DNA of 54,940 bases from a phage. This document shows, piece by piece, positions 5,998 to 27,283 of this stretch. The first letter of the stretch is position 1. Each line of letters starts with the position of its first letter. The DNA is taken from the NCBI GenBank assembly GCA_025829515.1, contig GCA_025829515.1_4865.2; one strand, given 5' to 3'. The notes beneath the pieces were generated by a model, which was given only the letters and a program-made list of their open reading frames with translations, did not search any database and had not been told where the DNA came from. The translations under genes and the position numbers were made by a program.

Positions 5998-6507
5998 ATG
6001 TTTACTGCGCCAACCGTGCAGGTGGGGCAAGGTCTTAACCTGGTGGTACACGACCAGCGGTTAATCGACCTCTGCGACACAAGCATAATTACTGCGATGA
6101 TGGACCATAACCCTTTAGGTGACTACGGAAATACCAGCGAGATTTTGGCTGTTGCTGCCGTCCTCCGTCGTATTTACGGTCAAATAACCATCGTAGATCT
6201 CTGTAACTTCATTGACAACCACAGAGATTTAACTAAAGGGTTGGTCGCACTTACTCAAGATGGGGTGTCAAGTTTTGACAGTTCTCTTGGTAATTTCCTA
6301 GACATCGGTTCCGGGTTCGACTCCGGGCTAATGTTCATCACTCGTGAACGCTACGTCGCCGTCTGGGAATTTCTGCAACGCATGGGTGTGCATGTTCCTG
6401 CAAAGATCATGCATTACCAAACTTACGACCTGAATATTTTCGGGGAGCCAGGGTTATGGATAAAACCAGTACACCTTGGCCTTGATGGCTACACCATCAA
6501 GTGTTAA
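5998..6507 (+). CDS. hypothetical protein
   Basis: ORF track starts at 5953, but the in-frame ATG at 5998 has AAGGAG 6 nt upstream and follows the previous stop at 5987. Confidence 0.5.
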   Translation: MFTAPTVQVGQGLNLVVHDQRLIDLCDTSIITAMMDHNPLGDYGNTSEILAVAAVLRRIYGQITIVDLCNFIDNHRDLTKGLVALTQDGVSSFDSSLGNFLDIGSGFDSGLMFITRERYVAVWEFLQRMGVHVPAKIMHYQTYDLNIFGEPGLWIKPVHLGLDGYTIKC

Positions 6508-6514
6508 GTCACTA

Positions 6515-6567
6515 GGCGTACTCTCTTCGGGGAGTACGCCAATCTTATTTTTTTTTATTTTTTTTTT
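6515..6567 (+). terminator. rho-independent terminator
   Basis: Stem ggcgtact/agtacgcc with cUUCGg-type loop followed by a long T-tract. Confidence 0.6.
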
Positions 6568-7164
6568 GGTTACTTTTTAACCAACCGGTTAAAGGGGTCT
6601 GGGAAGCATCAGAAAACGATTAGGTGGTATCGACGTAGGGTAGCTCGTTTTTGGCAGTTTATCGTTTTCTAGGGTCGGTTACGTGCGTTTTAGAGGGGGT
6701 TATGTATCGAGACAGAGAATTTATTTTTGTCGGGGCGAGGAAATTCAGGGAATGGGGATTCAGGATTGTATGTTTTTTAACCAGTTATTAAAAACGCTCT
6801 AGAAAGCGCTAGAACGAGATTTAACTCAGACCCAGTACACTTGGGTTCCCCCTACCGGAAAATCGCGCCAGCGGGCCGTTGAGAGCGCGAGAGTGCCATT
6901 CCCGTTTCGGTTCCGGGACGACGGTCGCGGCCGGCGACGACGATCACACGTTGGGTAGCACTTCGTGCCATGTCTGGGTGAAAACTGGATCGTTCTGTAA
7001 CCGACACACACTGTCGGTTACTTACGAGTTCTTTGGGTTGTTTAACTCGCTCTAAAATCCCCCTTAGGGGATAATTTAATCTAATTCTCAAAATTTCTTT
7101 TTAAAACAATCACTTAGATTGTTTTTTAGATTGATCCTGTGGATCGGGTCGAAGACCCTTTCCT

Positions 7165-7330
7165 TATACGCGTGCGCGTGCGCACACCCGTATCCTCCAG
7201 GATCTTTTAAAATATATAATAATATTAAATATAATAATACCTTTAGGTATTATATTTAATTATTATAATTATTTATATAAATAAATATATTAATATATTA
7301 AGATCTTAAAACGCGTGCGGGCGCGCGCGT
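7165..7330. other. AT-rich imperfect palindrome (~110 bp, >90% AT) flanked by alternating purine-pyrimidine GC tracts; candidate origin or DNA-unwinding element
   Basis: Left tract tatacgcgtgcgcgtgcgcacac (7165-7187) and right tract cgcgtgcgggcgcgcgcgtg (7311-7330) bracket a block centred on the hairpin aataatacc-ttt-aggtattat (7232-7252); GATC-containing repeats flank both sides. Confidence 0.45.
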
Positions 7331-8279
7331 GATCCTTATTAAGAGATCGTGATCGGACGGAAGACCGAGATCGGGTACCCTGTGTATTTTTTACGTGGTT
7401 TCCCTATCGTGTGTTCAGACCACCACTCGATGTCCAAAAACCCATAGCTTCGGTGGTCGCCTCCCTGGTCGGTAGACTCTGACAAGTCGACCCACAACAC
7501 CAACCCGTCCGGGGACGGATTTTTATTCCAACGACAAGCTCCACGAAAATCCCCGCAGAGGGACTCACTGCTGTGTGACTCACCGGCTCCTGGACGCCTA
7601 CGCCTCGAGCCGGTAATTTTTTGATTACGTGAGTTTGTTGTTATATGCGAATAGCGATTGACCGCGCCAATGGTCCAATCACTTTTAAACCCTGCACGCT
7701 AGGGCTCCAAGTCCTGGGACTGATACCCAGGACGCTTTTTCGAAAATACCTACCGTGGTGTCTTCGACAAAGCGCAATCTAACACTGCGTGATTTATTAT
7801 GTTCTGGAAAACTTTCGCCGTGGAACAGAACCGGTGAGCGTCGGCGGGGATTCCGACAATCACCACCCATTCAGGTACTCGGTAAATAACCGACCTGCCG
7901 ACGGTGCTACGTCGGGCGTAGTTCGGTTTGCGAGAGTGTCGAGAAAGTCGACTGCGCACCCATGACAAAATCCGAGTTGACCGTGGCAGCGCCAGAGGAC
8001 TGGGCAGCGGAGAGACGTCGTTGAACTTACCTCCGATAGTTATCGCTGATTCCGCTCTGGCGTCGGGCCAAAACTGATTCGAATTCGGCGTTGCGTCGAA
8101 AAGGGGTCTGCGTGTAGAACCGCAGACTTGGGGGATAACTCCAAAGTGGGGTGATCGGATCTTGACGGCTCGGAATAGACGAGAGGGGTGGGTACTCCCG
8201 TTGAGAAACGACGGTACCTGGCTGATTAAAATTTACAGATTCTGCGTGAGGTATGATAAACCAAACGGAGAATTAAACC

Positions 8280-8855
8280 ATGAACTTGTATCGCATCGGG
8301 TTTTACCGAAACGAGATGCCTGAATCGGTTTTGGTTGTCTTAGCCGAAAACGAGGAGCAGGCCAAATCCTTCTGGCCGGTTAGCGCAGAGCGTCCAGCGG
8401 TTGCGTGCTGCTACGACGGCGCTGTGTCTACCCCGATGGTTACGCCTGGGGTGGTTCTGAAGCAAGGCCGTTGGGATGATTATTCCCATCCCGGTTTGGA
8501 ATTTGTTTCCGAATCCGCCAGACACACCTGGAATCTTACCACGGGTAAAACCAGAGTGTACTTCGGCCACCAAGCCAAGCAACCGTCGCTCATCAAGCTG
8601 TACCTGGTTTACAGCGACGTCGCTACCGAAGACTATGTCGACGCCGGAATCATCGTCGGGGCAACAACCCCCGAGGCGGCATTCGCACATTGGGACGGTG
8701 ATAAACCCGGAATCGTTTCGGTCTGTGAGCTACCACTTGAAGCCGGTTTGGTTACGAACATCAAGTGTGAGCAAGGCCAGGAGCTGACTTGGATGCGCCA
8801 GGATTACCTGACGGAAACGACATTCGAGTACACACCGAGGAAGGTGACCCAATGA
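8280..8855 (+). CDS. hypothetical protein with internal duplication of a ~90-aa domain
   Basis: 191-aa ORF with GGAG RBS; N- and C-terminal halves share an LY...VxA..EEqA pattern, also present in the 9578..9820 product. Confidence 0.5.
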   Translation: MNLYRIGFYRNEMPESVLVVLAENEEQAKSFWPVSAERPAVACCYDGAVSTPMVTPGVVLKQGRWDDYSHPGLEFVSESARHTWNLTTGKTRVYFGHQAKQPSLIKLYLVYSDVATEDYVDAGIIVGATTPEAAFAHWDGDKPGIVSVCELPLEAGLVTNIKCEQGQELTWMRQDYLTETTFEYTPRKVTQ

Positions 8856-9343
8856 CGACGATAGCGTTCGATGGAAAAGTCTTAGCTGCTGACGGTCAGC
8901 TGACCCGCGGGTCGAATATCTGCAACCTGAACACCCAGAAGTTATTCATCTGCCCTTCTGACGAGGAATGGTGGATTACTGGTGAACGGATTGTGGCGTT
9001 CGGAGTAAGCGGTGACATCACAGGACAGTTGGCCCTGCTGGAAACGGTCCGCTTGAGACCCGGCTACAAGGGGTTAACGCAAAGCTCGCAGTTACCTGCG
9101 AAGATGGATTTTACTTTCCTGATGCTTCTGGCCTCAGGAAAAGCGATAGTCGGCGGAAAACGTGAAGACGACGTGACGTTGTGGTGGAGTGAAGCCACAC
9201 CGCCTCTGGCAACCGGAAGCGGTTACGAGTATGCGTTGGGTGCGATGAAGATGGGCGCGAATGCGGTTCGTGCTGTTGAGATTGCGTCCGAATGCGATAT
9301 CTACACCGGTGGTGAGATTAGCACTTACGAATTACGGAGGTGA
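8852..9343 (+). CDS. HslV-like Ntn-hydrolase (proteasome beta-type peptidase homolog)
   Basis: Start MTTIAFDGKVLAADGQ matches the HslV N-terminus MTTIVSV...AGDGQ with Thr2 as candidate nucleophile; GSG motif (LATGSGYEYA) and C-terminal CDIYTGGEISTYEL resemble HslV; ATGA overlap with upstream gene. Confidence 0.75.
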   Translation: MTTIAFDGKVLAADGQLTRGSNICNLNTQKLFICPSDEEWWITGERIVAFGVSGDITGQLALLETVRLRPGYKGLTQSSQLPAKMDFTFLMLLASGKAIVGGKREDDVTLWWSEATPPLATGSGYEYALGAMKMGANAVRAVEIASECDIYTGGEISTYELRR

Positions 9344-9435
9344 ATCATGCGGGAGTCAGAAGCACGCAAGCTTGACCCCATCAATCGCCTGCGATAACGG
9401 GGTAGCGCATCCGTATAAACACGTTCAAGAATTCT

Positions 9436-9511
9436 AGGAAAGTGACGCAATTGGTAGCGTACCGGTCTCCAAAACCGGCTGTTTAGAGTTCGAGTCTCTA
9501 CTTTCCTGCCA
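9436..9511 (+). tRNA. tRNA-Trp (anticodon CCA)
   Basis: Hand-folded cloverleaf: acceptor aggaaag/ctttcct, D-stem acgc/gcgt, anticodon stem ccggt/accgg with loop ctCCAaa, 5-nt variable loop, T-arm tagag-ttcgagt-ctcta, discriminator G and encoded CCA. Confidence 0.8.
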
Positions 9512-9577
9512 CATTTAGCCAACAAGGCCATGATTCAAAGCAGAATGACACCGAATGTCTAACTGCGGAGAATAATC

Positions 9578-9820
9578 ATGAACTTGTATTTGCTAGAACG
9601 AACTGACGATATCGGGTATGATGAATTTGATTCCATAATCGTGGCGGCTCCTACGGAGCAAGCTGCGTGTGCAATTCCTCCCGACTGTGGCCATTGGATG
9701 GACTGCCGCTGGTTACCGAAAGAGCGCTGGGATGAAGGGCTTACCCTGACCGTTACTCTTATCGGTACTACGCACTATCCTGCTGGGACCGTCGTTCATG
9801 AATCGTTCAATGCTGGCTAA
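9578..9820 (+). CDS. hypothetical small protein, paralog of the 8280..8855 repeat domain
   Basis: 80-aa ORF starting MNLY like 8280..8855; GGAG RBS; followed by hairpin 9823-9840. Confidence 0.45.
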   Translation: MNLYLLERTDDIGYDEFDSIIVAAPTEQAACAIPPDCGHWMDCRWLPKERWDEGLTLTVTLIGTTHYPAGTVVHESFNAG

Positions 9821-10865
9821 ACAGTGGGCTTCGGCCCACTAACCCTATTCGAGCCGTGATACTTACTCAGATTGTGCGGGTTGATGTCCCGCATGAGCCG
9901 GTAGCAGCTCAGACCTACGGTAGACCAATAAATCCGTAGCAGCCAGGTACACAAAGTACCAGGTCGCTTGTACAGGATGCTGGGTATCTGACCGGTCATA
10001 ACCTCATTCGATACGAGACACGTTTATGCATGAAATACTCCAGTACATCAGGATGTTGATTTCCAACGTCCGGTTCTGGGTATTCAATCATGTTTGGTTT
10101 ACAGGCGATGGGTTTTCCCGCAAGGGCCCCACTTACAGACTGGCGTCTCCACGACAACCGTCCCTAGGGGACAGGCAAGCACCGGCCCATTAAGCCGCTA
10201 CGCTACGCCTGTAAATCCACAATCTGATAACCGAATGGGATTGAGTTCCCAGTGTTAGGGTGACTGTGTGTCACCGTAGGCGCGGTACCTCATACGGCCG
10301 GTACGCCACGAATGTACGTGATAGCGGGTGGTGCTTGGAGACGCTAAGACCTGACCTTGCGGCCAGGCTCAGAAGAAGAAGTCCATCACCCGCATTCAGA
10401 AATGAATTTAGGTTAATTATTATTTATGGAAGTGATGAAATCGTTTACGTGATAACTTAGTAGTATGCAACGAACAATACCAGAGTGACTTTACGAGGTT
10501 ACTGTGGTATATGTCGGTGCGCCGGGCAACGTGTTGCCGCAGATAAGCCCGAGGGAGCTGAGTGCACTAACACACGCCGGGATGCATCGGCACCTTACAA
10601 TGGGAGCGCTGTCACCATCAGTGATGACAGGAGTGAAGGATTCGTACCTCACTCGACTGGGCGGAAGCCTGGGCGTTCCCCCATCTTCACATCATGGCCG
10701 GCTTGCCGGTTCAACGTAGACGTCTCGTAAGAGATTTCCAGTCAGGCAACTGATAACACACCTAAGCGTCGACCTTGGACGTATGGTGTCTGGTTAAGTC
10801 CCCCGAAACGGAAACCAGTAGGGGTGTGGTACGTTGAGTGTAACTATCATGATGCCATGAACAAT

Positions 10866-10935
10866 GGCTTTGTAGCTCAGGTAGGTAGAGCAACCTCTTC
10901 GAGGAAGGTCGCCGGTTCGAGTCCGGTCAAAGCAA
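10866..10935 (+). tRNA. tRNA-like element with canonical acceptor, D and T arms but a truncated anticodon arm (possible pseudo-tRNA)
   Basis: tagctcaggtaggtagagc D-arm and gccggttcgagtccggt T-arm are tRNA-typical, but only 14 nt (aacctcttcgagga) lie where an 18-nt anticodon arm should be; G1-A72 mismatch. Confidence 0.4.
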
Positions 10936-11009
10936 GAGCAGCGAAGTTAGAGGAATTAACACCCGACTCATAATCGGATATTTCGACGGTTCGAATCCGT
11001 CCGTTTGCT
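10936..11009 (+). tRNA. tRNA-like element, possible tRNA-Met/Ile2 (anticodon CAU), non-canonical D and acceptor arms
   Basis: T-arm gacgg-ttcgaat-ccgtc and anticodon arm cccga-ctCATaa-tcgga are recognisable; acceptor pairing imperfect and the 5' boundary is uncertain. Confidence 0.35.
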
Positions 11010-11390
11010 CGCCCCATTTGTGTTATCCTTATCCCGAAGGCATTCGAAATAAGACGCGTATCCACACACGGGTCAAGGGTAACACGAACCACTTCCGCGG
11101 TCACCGTGTCCATTGCCGCCTACCTGCATGGGCTGTCCTCCGACACGGTGACTTCGGGCCAACTTACAGGCCAGGGCCGTTTGGGTTTTTCTTACGCATC
11201 CATCCAGAGCCACCTCGCGCCCTAGTCTGTATACCCCTTTTCTGTTCCTGGTTTGCCAACTAAATCAATTAAGCCTGGTGCGTTGCCCTGGGAACAGAAA
11301 AACTTATTCGGTTACACACCGAACCCACCCACGAGGGATATGTCGTGGACTACCAATAGAAGCAGCAATAGTAGTAAGAAGGAAAGCAAC

Positions 11391-12215
11391 ATGTTTACAG
11401 TTAAACGTGTGATTGATGGTGACCGTATTATTACCGAACATGAAAAGGTACGTATCGGTGACCGTAAGTCTCGTGTATTCCGCGAGGCATTAAAAATGCT
11501 CGAGAACGAGCGCTTCGACATCGTTGTCGATGATGAAAAGTTAGCCCTTAATCCGGGGTTAAAACGCGTTGCCCCTGATGTGCCTGATCCGAACACCATG
11601 CATTTGTCTGACTACTATAGTTGGGCGTATCGCAGAGAGAAAAGTTGTGAAGACGCGCATTTATACTTAAAACAGCTGTTCCCTAACCTGGTATTGCCTG
11701 ACCATGATTCAGTCGGCGTTATTGATAACGACTATCAAACGTTTATGAACTATGTAGAGGCTAATCCGGGCGTAACTCGCATTTTGGTTTTAGCTGAAAA
11801 CCACAAGTCCACTGATGCTATTGTAAAACTGGTTATGAGCCAGCTTGCAGACGAAGGCACGATGTACAGCATCGACTACTATAAACCTTCTCCGGATAGC
11901 GATCTCGGTATTATTGTTTATACCTACGGTGAGTTACAACAGGTCGAACTGGAACCTGGTCCAGCGATGGAGTTCACCGACGTCCAGGAGCAGTCTCAGT
12001 GGGTTAACGGTGAGTGCGTTGTTACTGTTTTAAAAGGCGCGCGCCCTGGCGACCGGTCAGTCGATGAACTGATTGGCGCAATGTGCATCGAAGAAGAATC
12101 TGGATACGATCCTGATAACCAGATCAGTACCGGTGCGTTGTACGAACTGTTTTATAAAGGCGACGAAGTCTACGTGGTTAACTCTCACGGTAAGACTACC
12201 GACGTCCTTCGCTGA
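11391..12215 (+). CDS. hypothetical protein
   Basis: ORF track starts at 11253, but the first 46 codons are low-complexity; the in-frame ATG at 11391 has AAGGAAAG upstream. Confidence 0.5.
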   Translation: MFTVKRVIDGDRIITEHEKVRIGDRKSRVFREALKMLENERFDIVVDDEKLALNPGLKRVAPDVPDPNTMHLSDYYSWAYRREKSCEDAHLYLKQLFPNLVLPDHDSVGVIDNDYQTFMNYVEANPGVTRILVLAENHKSTDAIVKLVMSQLADEGTMYSIDYYKPSPDSDLGIIVYTYGELQQVELEPGPAMEFTDVQEQSQWVNGECVVTVLKGARPGDRSVDELIGAMCIEEESGYDPDNQISTGALYELFYKGDEVYVVNSHGKTTDVLR

Positions 12216-25331: not shown

Positions 25332-27283
25332 GTGAGAAAGGTACCAAAATTCTACGGAATATCCGGCCGGTTGGTTAGTCAGGATAACTATTTGTCCGAT
25401 TTGCAAATAGAAGCTGCAGCCAAAGGTATTAAACCACCCACTATTATTAACGATGTCGCCGTTAACGGGGATGCTATCGAGGTTGCTGAACTTATCGATC
25501 GCATGGTACAGAACAGAATCGTTGACGAAGAACTGAACTCTGCACCGATTTGTAGTTTGGATTGTCCGGCACCGATCGCGCATCGTTACAATCTCGGTTG
25601 TAAGTGTCCGACGTGTGGCTATGTTGTAACTGAACATCGAATTGAATCCGATGTCTGGTTACGTGCACCCGATGAAATGGGTAACTTCGTCAACCCACGA
25701 TTCTGGGCAATGTTCAATGCTTTCTTTAATAGCAAGTTGAAGAAGTTTGAACGTAACAAGGTCACTATCGAACGCGGTAATGACTTGATGATGTGGATGA
25801 TTGACCCGTATTACCGTATAGAAGAACCAGACGGTAAACGCGCACATGCTGTGAAACGTGTATTGGAAGAACATGGTTTCGTTCGTGGCTTGCGCAATCT
25901 GGTTGATAACCACGTTAGTATCTTTAACATCCTTACCACGCCAGAAGCCTGGAAGGAAATCTTCGCACCTAATCGGCATAACGCCGCTGAAGGTGAACGC
26001 TTACGTTTACAATGGAAGGAGCTATTCGAAACGCAACGTCACGCATTCTTCCCAAGACACTTACCGCTAATCTCCTCTAAACTTATCGTTACTGAGGAAG
26101 GTCGTCGTGGTGTCATGGTAGACCCAGTGTTCACGGGTGCTATTGATGCGGTGAAAAATATCGCGTTGCTCTATACGCGGCGTAAAGCGATCGAACCACG
26201 TTTTCTGATTAGTCGTGCTTTGAAGGCGAACCGTCAGCTAACGTACTTCCACATGGACTTCCGTCGTGAGTCTATGGAAGGTAAACCGGGTGACTATCGT
26301 GCGAAATTGGGTTCTACCCATATCCCGTTCGGTGGTCGTGCAACCATCTCACCTATCTCAGAACCACATGATGCCTGGAAGTTAAAAGCACCATGGCGTT
26401 GGATGGTTGGGTTGATGTCGACCCACATCGAGAACAAACTGCTACGACGCGGTTATTCGTCACGGCAGTGTGAACGTATCGTTGCGAAAGCGGCAATGCA
26501 GTATGACCCGCTTGTAGATGAAATCTTTAAAGAACTGATTCGTGAATCCCCAGGCGGTCTTGGGATCATGGTCATACCGTTACGTAACCCAACGCTGGTA
26601 CAGTTGTCTATTCAAACGCTGTACATCGATGAAGTTGTTACCGATGTTAACCAGTGTTCGCTGCGTATCTCTGACCGTGTGATCAAGATGGCTAACGGTT
26701 CGAAAAGAGCCCCATCGGACGGGAAACCTCTGATGCGTATTCTCCTGAAATGCTGGGAAACCCTAAAGCGTATCTACCAGAAATGGGGACGAAAGTCTGA
26801 AACAACAGATACGATGACCTACGCTAAACAATACTGCTAACGGTTGTGATAATGGGTAATCAGCAGCGAAGCCTCGTGAGAGGAACGTTCAACGACTATC
26901 GCTGAAATGCGAGTAGGGGTCCCAGTGGACTTCGAAGTGGGAGAACACCTAAGGCGATAGCTATGGTGAAGATATAGTCTGTGCCTTATCGAGAGATAAG
27001 GAGGGTGTCTTAGCACACCTGCTGTATACGGAAACGGTATACGGTGGACAAACAGGATTTCGATGGCGACCAGTTCCAGGTACGTTTGCCAGTCGATGAA
27101 ACTGAGATGAAGTTGGCGCTCCAATTCCGTCCAGATAACGGCTTTATGTCTTCTACTGATGTGGACCGCGTAGAACACGGCATGGTTTTACATAACGAGC
27201 TAATCAGTATGCAGAACCAGTTCCTTATTGAAGCAGATGAGGATGATGAAGAAGGCATTCCGTTGGAAGCGGTGATGGGCTAA
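25332..27283 (+). CDS. multisubunit RNA polymerase beta'-like N-terminal fragment, interrupted by a group I intron (exon 1 ~25332..26662, exon 2 ~27037..27283)
   Basis: Exon 1 has a beta'-type zinc ribbon (CSLDCPAPIAHRYNLGCKCPTCG), FRRESMEGK...GGRATISPISEP and IPLRNPTLVQLSIQ (cf. E. coli NRAPTLHRLGIQ); downstream frame encodes DFDGDQFQVRLPVDETEMKLALQF (cf. [26 protein letters not shown]); the two parts are in different frames ~370 nt apart and the second has no RBS. Confidence 0.65.
26663..27036 (+). ncRNA. putative ORF-less group I intron (boundaries +/- ~10 nt)
   Basis: Core elements in canonical order: P-like ggacgggaaa (26717-26727), Q-like aatcagcagcgaagcc (26858-26873), R-like gttcaacgactat (26887-26899), and aagatatagtc (26969-26979) identical to the Tetrahymena intron S element; gactat and atagtc can form P7; a U-ended exon 1 and G-ended intron restore the frame. 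Confidence 0.55.

Follow-up and report, generated by a model that had tools for sequence, protein, structure and literature searches.

A proteasome-like peptidase gene of a Seoulvirus-type jumbo phage fits the phage PPH family and is not an HslV orthologue

A phage-encoded HslV-like peptidase with no HslU ATPase in sight raises the question of whether it works with the host HslU, with another partner or on its own. The question arose from a 54,940-nucleotide (nt) stretch of phage DNA (contig GCA_025829515.1_4865.2 of assembly GCA_025829515.1, hereafter the window), in which a first-pass annotation, made from the sequence alone, had read the open reading frame (ORF) at 8852-9343 as an HslV-like peptidase that may co-opt the host HslU or act alone. 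The position of this ORF, its 163-amino-acid (aa) product and the quoted motifs (MTTIAFDGKVLAADGQ, GSG at residues 122-124 and CDIYTGGEISTYEL) were all recovered as described. The product, hereafter the peptidase, is not an HslV orthologue. Judged by the published description of the family and by a surrogate profile of compact relatives, it fits PPH, a group of phage proteasome-like proteins, and we consider it rather probable that it is an active N-terminal-threonine peptidase of this type, not dependent on canonical HslU docking.

Homology, predicted fold and active site

The likeness to HslV put forward in the first-pass annotation is visible only at the profile and fold level. Pairwise searches revealed none, since BLASTP against Escherichia coli HslV gave an E value of 15, and phmmer against the PDB sequences returned nothing significant. 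The Pfam Proteasome model (PF00227; MEROPS family T1) scored 12.9 bits, below its gathering score of 22.4, and the NCBIfam HslV equivalogs TIGR03692 and PRK05456 gave 16.3 and 16.1 bits against cut-offs of 157.75 and 137. A family profile built from a 52-sequence alignment of peptidase homologues, searched against the PDB, matched the proteasome beta5 subunit (E 2e-13) and Thermotoga maritima HslV (E 7e-12), and hhalign aligned it with E. coli HslV at a probability of 97% (E 7.6e-11). Homology at the superfamily level is thus clear in spite of the sub-threshold PF00227 score, because some relatives carry precomputed PF00227 matches and the profile reaches beta5 at the E value given above.

Structure prediction, proposed as a check in the first-pass annotation, was carried out with AlphaFold2 from the same 52-sequence alignment and gave a model with a mean predicted local distance difference test score (pLDDT) of 93.2 and a predicted template modelling score of 0.88. 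The model has the fold of a proteasome-type N-terminal nucleophile (Ntn) hydrolase, so that the outcome named in that annotation as a refutation did not occur, and the best Foldseek match was chain G of the HslV structure 1G3I, HslV being marginally the best structural match. According to DSSP, the model contains only three helices (56-66, 125-133 and 138-148) and a last strand at 157-160, three residues after which the chain ends. A single helix (56-66) stands where H1 and H2 are expected, no helix is present between residues 67 and 124, and HslV residues 79-97 were left unmatched by hhalign.

In their survey of proteasome-like proteins, Fuchs, Alva and Lupas (2021) described PPH as a compact phage family of ~140 residues, found in tailed phages and in prophage regions of Proteobacteria and placed in "group I" with HslV, BPH, AAH and CPH (PMC8665760); the representative of their PPH cluster is WP_042125023.1 (KEGG OC.1434257). 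These proteins have no propeptide and no C-terminal S12/H5 elements; helix H2 is absent from PPH and RPC only, and a C-terminal extension would mark RPC rather than PPH (PMC8665760). Neither an AAA+ partner nor an informative gene context was found for PPH in that survey (PMC8665760). Scored with an independent profile built from 133 compact relatives, whose median length is 147 aa, the peptidase reached 115.8 bits and E. coli HslV 39.0 bits. It is this compact-family score, together with the failure of the HslV models, the sub-threshold Pfam match and a beta5 match as good as that to HslV, that sets the peptidase apart from HslV orthologues. With an E-value limit of 1e-5, 287 phage records matched the peptidase, and with a limit of 10 there were 792, the hosts including Salmonella, Escherichia, Klebsiella, Erwinia, Pseudomonas, Vibrio, Caulobacter, Xanthomonas, Rhizobium and Aeromonas. 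As far as the record counts name a host, it is a proteobacterium, and the metagenomic contexts are phage-like.

An exhaustive profile search returned 994 clusters (50% identity) at E<=1e-30, most listed members being 137-160 aa long, and conservation was counted in an alignment of 195 relatives, most of them less than ~50% identical to one another. Thr2, which the first-pass annotation had named as the nucleophile, withstood this comparison, as did the positions expected around it (Table 1). The near-invariance of the catalytic set in the 195 relatives is a strong argument for a functional active site and against a pseudo-enzyme.

The longest mechanical ORF begins upstream, at TTG 8789. However, 191 of the 195 relatives start with Met followed directly by Thr-Thr (M-T-T-I/V-A), which argues that ATG 8852 is the right start, and the Shine-Dalgarno-like purine stretch upstream of this ATG supports the same choice. 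The family chemistry requires a Thr immediately after the initiator Met, and the peptidase begins with M-T-T, without a propeptide. Methionine aminopeptidase prefers a small second residue, and the same N-terminal exposure takes place in E. coli HslV. In the mechanism that we propose, the peptidase would be made without a propeptide and the host methionine aminopeptidase would strip Met1, exposing Thr2 as the nucleophile. Thr2 would then act with Asp14, Lys30, the Gly51 backbone, Ser123, Asp149 and Thr152, in the manner of HslV and the proteasome beta subunits. A ring-shaped homo-oligomer is probable if HslV and BPH are taken as models.

HslU homologues and the question of a partner

By megablast, the window was placed in Seoulvirus, a genus of SPN3US-like Salmonella jumbo phages of ~240 kb within the nucleus-forming Chimalliviridae, with DNA identities of 96-98.9%; the closest deposited genome is 98.9% identical to the window and none is identical. 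The peptidase is the orthologue of SPN3US gp001 (YP_009153295.1), labelled "peptidase HslV family" in RefSeq and equivalently in SPLA5c and the SPFM phages. It is 100% identical to proteins of SPLA5c, of many SPFM phages and of EC001, and it is matched by PHROG 1040, "peptidase HslV family", at E 1.5e-37. SPLA5c and the window share 98.5% identity around the gene. The first-pass finding is therefore a correct rediscovery, gene, annotation and family being already public, and the remark of an HslV without HslU in a jumbo phage has also been published (PMC7823757).

Relative to the SPN3US orthologue, 20 codon changes are synonymous and four, all conservative, are non-synonymous, and 19 of the 25 base differences lie at third positions. 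Judged from these sequence comparisons, the gene is real and under purifying selection. The LR5359xx records (SPFM1, 5-10, 12, 14, 15, 20) align to the window only as many short pieces and hold truncated or scrambled versions of the peptidase; these anomalies look like frameshift-rich assemblies, not biology.

The first-pass annotation saw no HslU-like ATPase in the window, which is true, but the window covers only ~55 kb of a genome of roughly 240 kb. Searched by phmmer at maximum sensitivity with HslU of E. coli, gp116 of RAY and the MET_P1 protein, neither the window nor the complete genome of SPLA5c yielded an HslU-like ORF. SPLA5c has a single peptidase copy, no second paralogue and no annotated AAA+ protease partner. 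The absence from the window says little, however, because sister Seoulviruses and related jumbo phages do carry an HslU homologue, ~103 kb from the peptidase gene in the Seoulviruses and thus outside the window. Homologues were found by tblastn in many jumbo phages, including the three Seoulviruses MET_P1_082_240, SPLA3 and phage 1252 (Table 1). The Seoulvirus protein is 586 aa long, matches E. coli HslU at E 1.1e-53 and has a greatly enlarged intermediate domain. Machina-type Erwinia phages are similarly spaced, with the peptidase at position 1 and the HslU homologue at ~105 kb, and in SPLA5c the hslU-like gene was lost by a clean ~1.74 kb deletion that left its first 38 nt. The shared spacing of ~103-105 kb and the SPLA5c deletion indicate that the hslU-like gene was ancestral and later lost in some Seoulviruses. 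The closest relatives of the window differ from one another in having this gene.

At least 18 jumbo phages carry both genes, namely Caitlin, Parshik, Huxley, Machina, ChrisDB, pEa_SNUABM_4, 6, 8, 9, 10, 29, 42 and 43, pSal-SNUABM-04, SPAsTU, MET_P1_082_240, SPLA3 and phage 1252. The peptidase occurs without a phage HslU in ~30 Seoulvirus records, in Elvirus phages and in hundreds of 40-60 kb phages. It is apparently alone in Asesino, Stratton and phiEaH2 as well, which are not among the HslU homologues listed, the listing covering all but 92 weaker matches. Conversely, an HslU homologue is present in phages that are not among the peptidase matches: Agricanvirus (the RAY group), Wellington, Kwan, Derbicus, EarlPhillipIV, Phobos and CR5. 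In terms of gene content, the association between the peptidase and the HslU homologue is loose.

Erwinia phage RAY gp116, described as belonging to the "HslVU protease family" and co-localising with DNA in the phage nucleus, was considered as a homologue of the peptidase and rejected; it is a genuine homologue of HslU, matching the E. coli protein at E 3e-64, and its localisation is not transferable to the peptidase. In pSal-SNUABM-04, for which the published description states that no HslU subunit is encoded (PMC7823757), tblastn revealed a full-length HslU homologue annotated as "putative DnaA protein" and 49% identical to the Seoulvirus one (Table 1).

In HslV, Ala79 and Lys80 are located on H2 and form part of the pocket for the HslU tail (PMC6429459). 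Arg86, Arg89 and Lys90, also on H2, cluster at the pore entrance, in a region that is restructured upon HslU binding, and their mutation severely reduces HslV activity (PMC5777263). None of the H2 residues Ala79, Lys80, Arg86, Leu88, Arg89 and Lys90 has a counterpart in the peptidase, either in the hhalign alignment or in the model, and HslV Gln114 aligns to Ser113 in a variable column. Because H2 with its pocket and pore residues has no counterpart, canonical docking of the host HslU appears disfavoured; of the two options left by the first-pass annotation, this weakens co-option of the host HslU, at least in its canonical form. With H2 and these residues missing, the peptidase would not be the proteolytic half of a canonical HslUV. 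The C-terminal ...SRFIL tail, which HslU inserts into HslV for docking, is in turn missing from the phage HslU homologues; the MET_P1 protein ends in ...RGRVWTENA, and RAY gp116 has ~14 extra residues past the equivalent position.

Most likely, the peptidase is made during infection and is either partner-independent or partnered in a non-canonical way. Seoulvirus lineages from which the phage hslU-like gene was deleted have retained the peptidase under purifying selection. It may act on peptides or unfolded proteins, or on a specific protein of the host or the phage. Several points weigh against an active enzyme freed from HslU docking. The model is least confident in the loop replacing H2 (pLDDT 76-80, segment 61-80), and in the hhalign alignment Leu60 and Leu63 are conservative replacements of the HslV pocket residues Phe54 and Phe57. 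The presence of both genes in at least 18 jumbo phages could reflect an ancestral partnership through a non-canonical interface. As for activity, BPH, the nearest characterised stand-alone relative, is proteolytically inert in standard assays despite a reactive Thr1 (PMC5777263), so that we infer an active protease from conservation. The searchable literature on phage HslV-like or PPH proteins yields only annotations as far as experimental work is concerned. The JSS1_004 paper, considered as an experimental source, was rejected, as it mentions merely the host hslU and hslV genes.

Some of these points also suit the main rival explanation, in which the peptidase is the proteolytic core of an ATP-dependent HslUV-like machine, driven by the phage HslU where present (MET_P1_082_240, SPLA3, phage 1252 and the Machina/SPAsTU-type phages) and by the host HslU elsewhere (SPN3US, SPLA5c and possibly the phage of the window). 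True HslU homologues do exist in jumbo phages, as exemplified by RAY gp116 and the MET_P1 protein; the phages carrying both genes are related and keep them at a syntenic distance; and the known hosts are all Proteobacteria, which generally have HslUV. The marginally best structural match to HslV and the two kept pocket positions point the same way. The absence of the H2 residues, the variable position of Gln114 and the missing tail of the phage HslU homologues speak against such a machine, as do the unlinked distribution of the two genes, with peptidase-only and HslU-only phages, and the location of the RAY HslU homologue with DNA in the phage nucleus. We regard it as unlikely, although the co-occurrence in relatives leaves it an appreciable probability. 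A bolder proposal, which we hold to be quite doubtful, is that the SPN3US/Machina supergroup ancestrally encoded a "viral HslUV" composed of the H2-less peptidase and a tail-less HslU homologue with a giant intermediate domain. Most Seoulviruses would later have deleted the ATPase, the peptidase now being alone or re-wired to the host HslU, and the retained enzyme might destroy host defence or quality-control proteins. If true, the virus would encode a degradation system of its own that is proteasome-like and docks in a new mode.

Two further explanations dispense with general proteolysis. The peptidase could be a sequence-specific processing enzyme or transpeptidase, connectase-like, cutting or ligating one phage or host protein. 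A monomeric ligase of high specificity belongs to the proteasome-like family (PMC8665760), the lineage-specific insertions 37-47, 68-75 and 101-104 lie beside the active-site sheet, and the loss of H2 could alter or abolish ring assembly; still, we hold this to be improbable. The least probable idea, to which we give very little credence, is that of a catalytically irrelevant decoy or scaffold, titrating for example the host HslU or another host factor. The inactivity of BPH, a close structural relative, in standard assays would agree with it, as would the general observation that phages often encode mimics of host proteins. However, a decoy would not need the catalytic set that is kept across the 195 sequences, including the second-shell residues Ser123, Asp149 and Thr/Ser152, and the helix that contacts HslU is missing. 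The partner-independent or non-canonically partnered peptidase remains the explanation that we prefer.

Genes and RNA features around the peptidase

The gene upstream of the peptidase, a 191-aa ORF whose stop overlaps the peptidase start (Table 1), has no Pfam, NCBIfam or PHROG family and no similarity to the genes flanking the peptidase in other phages. It was found in only 27 Seoulvirus records and is absent from SPN3US. By its distribution, it appears to be an accessory neighbour and not a conserved partner. Three further phage lineages likewise show an overlap of 4 nt, with an upstream gene that is unrelated. When the flanking genes of Seoulvirus, Jerseyvirus, Jedunavirus, Elvirus and three metagenomic phage contigs were compared in search of a conserved partner, they had no detectable similarity in common, and an N-terminal motif seemingly common to three neighbouring ORFs (MNLY.../MKLF...) was rejected, BLAST giving E values of 0.01-0.4 and jackhmmer being unsupportive. 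In the phages examined, the neighbours of the peptidase are small, mostly unannotated genes that differ in every lineage. These varied surroundings fit an accessory, host-directed function.

The tRNA cluster that the first-pass annotation had placed next to the gene reduces to one solid tRNA, tRNA-Trp, called by ARAGORN, and two weak tandem tRNA-like Rfam matches that ARAGORN did not call, perhaps tRNAs of a degenerate or unusual kind. In the wider region, tRNA-OTHER, Ile, Asp or Asn is annotated in other Seoulvirus records. The peptidase locus is flanked by two ORF-poor stretches, in which no Rfam family except tRNA was found, and 13 terminator-like hairpins were observed in 6400-11400, where 4.9 +/- 2.6 were expected. 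Further along the window, a group I intron match lies between ORFs (~25498-26835 and 27102-27278) annotated as "RNA polymerase beta subunit" in SPLA5c; an intron-split phage RNA polymerase subunit gene is likely there.

Table 1. Features of the peptidase gene, its surroundings and the HslU homologues. Positions refer to the window unless another record is named; residue counts are among the 195 relatives.
Feature	Location	Strand	Description
Upstream 191-aa ORF	8280..8855	+	Stop overlaps the peptidase start (ATGA, 4 nt)
Shine-Dalgarno-like purine stretch	8837..8847	+	GAGGAAGGTGA; 4 nt upstream of the peptidase ATG; read from the sequence
Peptidase coding sequence	8852..9343	+	163 aa; PPH-type, "HslV family" N-terminal-threonine peptidase; ATG 8852, TGA 9341-9343
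Thr2 codon	8855..8857	+	193 Thr, 2 Ser; aligns with Thr1 of beta5; predicted N-terminal nucleophile after Met removal
Asp14 codon	8891..8893	+	Asp in 193; equivalent to Asp17 of HslV/proteasome (hhalign)
Lys30 codon	8939..8941	+	Lys in 195; equivalent to Lys33 of HslV/proteasome (hhalign)
Gly51			104 Gly, 83 Ala; equivalent to Gly47, oxyanion-hole position
Gly54			Gly in 195
Gly122-Ser123-Gly124 codons	9215..9223	+	GSG motif; both Gly in 195; aligns with HslV GSG 123-125
Ser123			174 Ser, 16 Thr; equivalent to HslV Ser124, proteasome Ser129
Asp149-Thr152 (D-I-Y-T) codons	9296..9307	+	Equivalent to proteasome Asp166 and Ser169; falls on beta5 R-D-x-x-S-G-G by profile
Asp149			179 Asp, 13 Asn; equivalent to Asp166
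Thr152			123 Thr, 72 Ser, always a hydroxyl residue; equivalent to Ser169
tRNA-Trp (anticodon CCA)	9436..9511	+	92 nt downstream of the peptidase stop; ARAGORN; Rfam tRNA 63.6 bits
Weak tRNA-like match	10866..10935	+	Rfam, 40.9 bits
Weak tRNA-like match	10938..11009	+	Rfam, 30.6 bits
ORF-poor stretch	6508..8279		1.8 kb
ORF-poor stretch	9821..11252		1.4 kb
Group I intron match	26680..27001	+	Rfam, 69.4 bits, E 1.3e-15
Seoulvirus hslU-like gene	OQ383623.1 81569..83329 (L018:5001-6761)		
Seoulvirus hslU-like gene	SPLA3 115433..117190		
Seoulvirus hslU-like gene	phage 1252 54442..56199		
HslU homologue of pSal-SNUABM-04	MT710307.1 106144..107871		

Significance and comparison with known systems

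The peptidase gene, already annotated, is an ordinary representative of a family that has been described, and no new kind of element. What is added here is the explicit demonstration that its product falls outside HslV and fits PPH, and the observation that related jumbo phages, three Seoulviruses among them, encode HslU homologues distant from the peptidase gene, including one in a phage reported to be without HslU. The phage family of proteasome homologues is large, as the 994 clusters and several hundred phage genomes attest. Since SPN3US is genetically tractable and natural Seoulvirus variants exist with and without the phage HslU homologue, this system offers a convenient entry point to how viruses use a proteasome-like peptidase and whether it needs an unfoldase.

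Among the known systems, PPH resembles the peptidase most in its compact single-domain proteasome-like fold, in the lack of a propeptide, of H2, of S12/H5 and of a C-terminal extension, and in the presence of the Thr1/Asp17/Lys33 set and of the Gly47 position. Both are carried by tailed phages of Proteobacteria with no adjacent AAA+ gene. The peptidase differs from PPH in its length, 163 aa against about 140-147, which is due to the lineage-specific insertions mentioned above; these are found in at most ~23 of the 195 relatives, residues 68-73 in only two or three. It differs also at a family position that is Trp in 169 of the 195 relatives and Thr65 in the peptidase.

HslV (ClpQ; MEROPS T1B; PDB 1G3I and 1M4Y) stands further away, as the peptidase falls ~120-140 bits short of the cut-offs of the HslV family models, lacks H2 with its HslU-pocket and pore residues, has no adjacent hslU and is undetectable by pairwise BLAST. 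The betaproteobacterial BPH (PDB 5OVS and 5OVU), which is cellular and not phage-borne, retains H2, possesses a long acidic pore loop and assembles into heptameric double rings. The 20S proteasome beta subunits (beta5/beta5i and archaeal beta) are larger (~200 aa), possess H2, H5 and propeptides, and assemble with alpha rings. Connectase is monomeric, has no H1/H2 pair and carries, between S3 and S4, an insertion of two helices over the active site, a description that the peptidase does not match. Finally, the phage HslU homologues (RAY gp116 and the "hslU" product of MET_P1_082_240) belong to the same jumbo-phage supergroup and often share a genome with the peptidase, which opens the possibility of a phage HslUV-like pair; they differ from it in being ATPases and not peptidases, with an intermediate domain of greatly increased size, in being encoded ~103 kb away and in being absent from most Seoulviruses.

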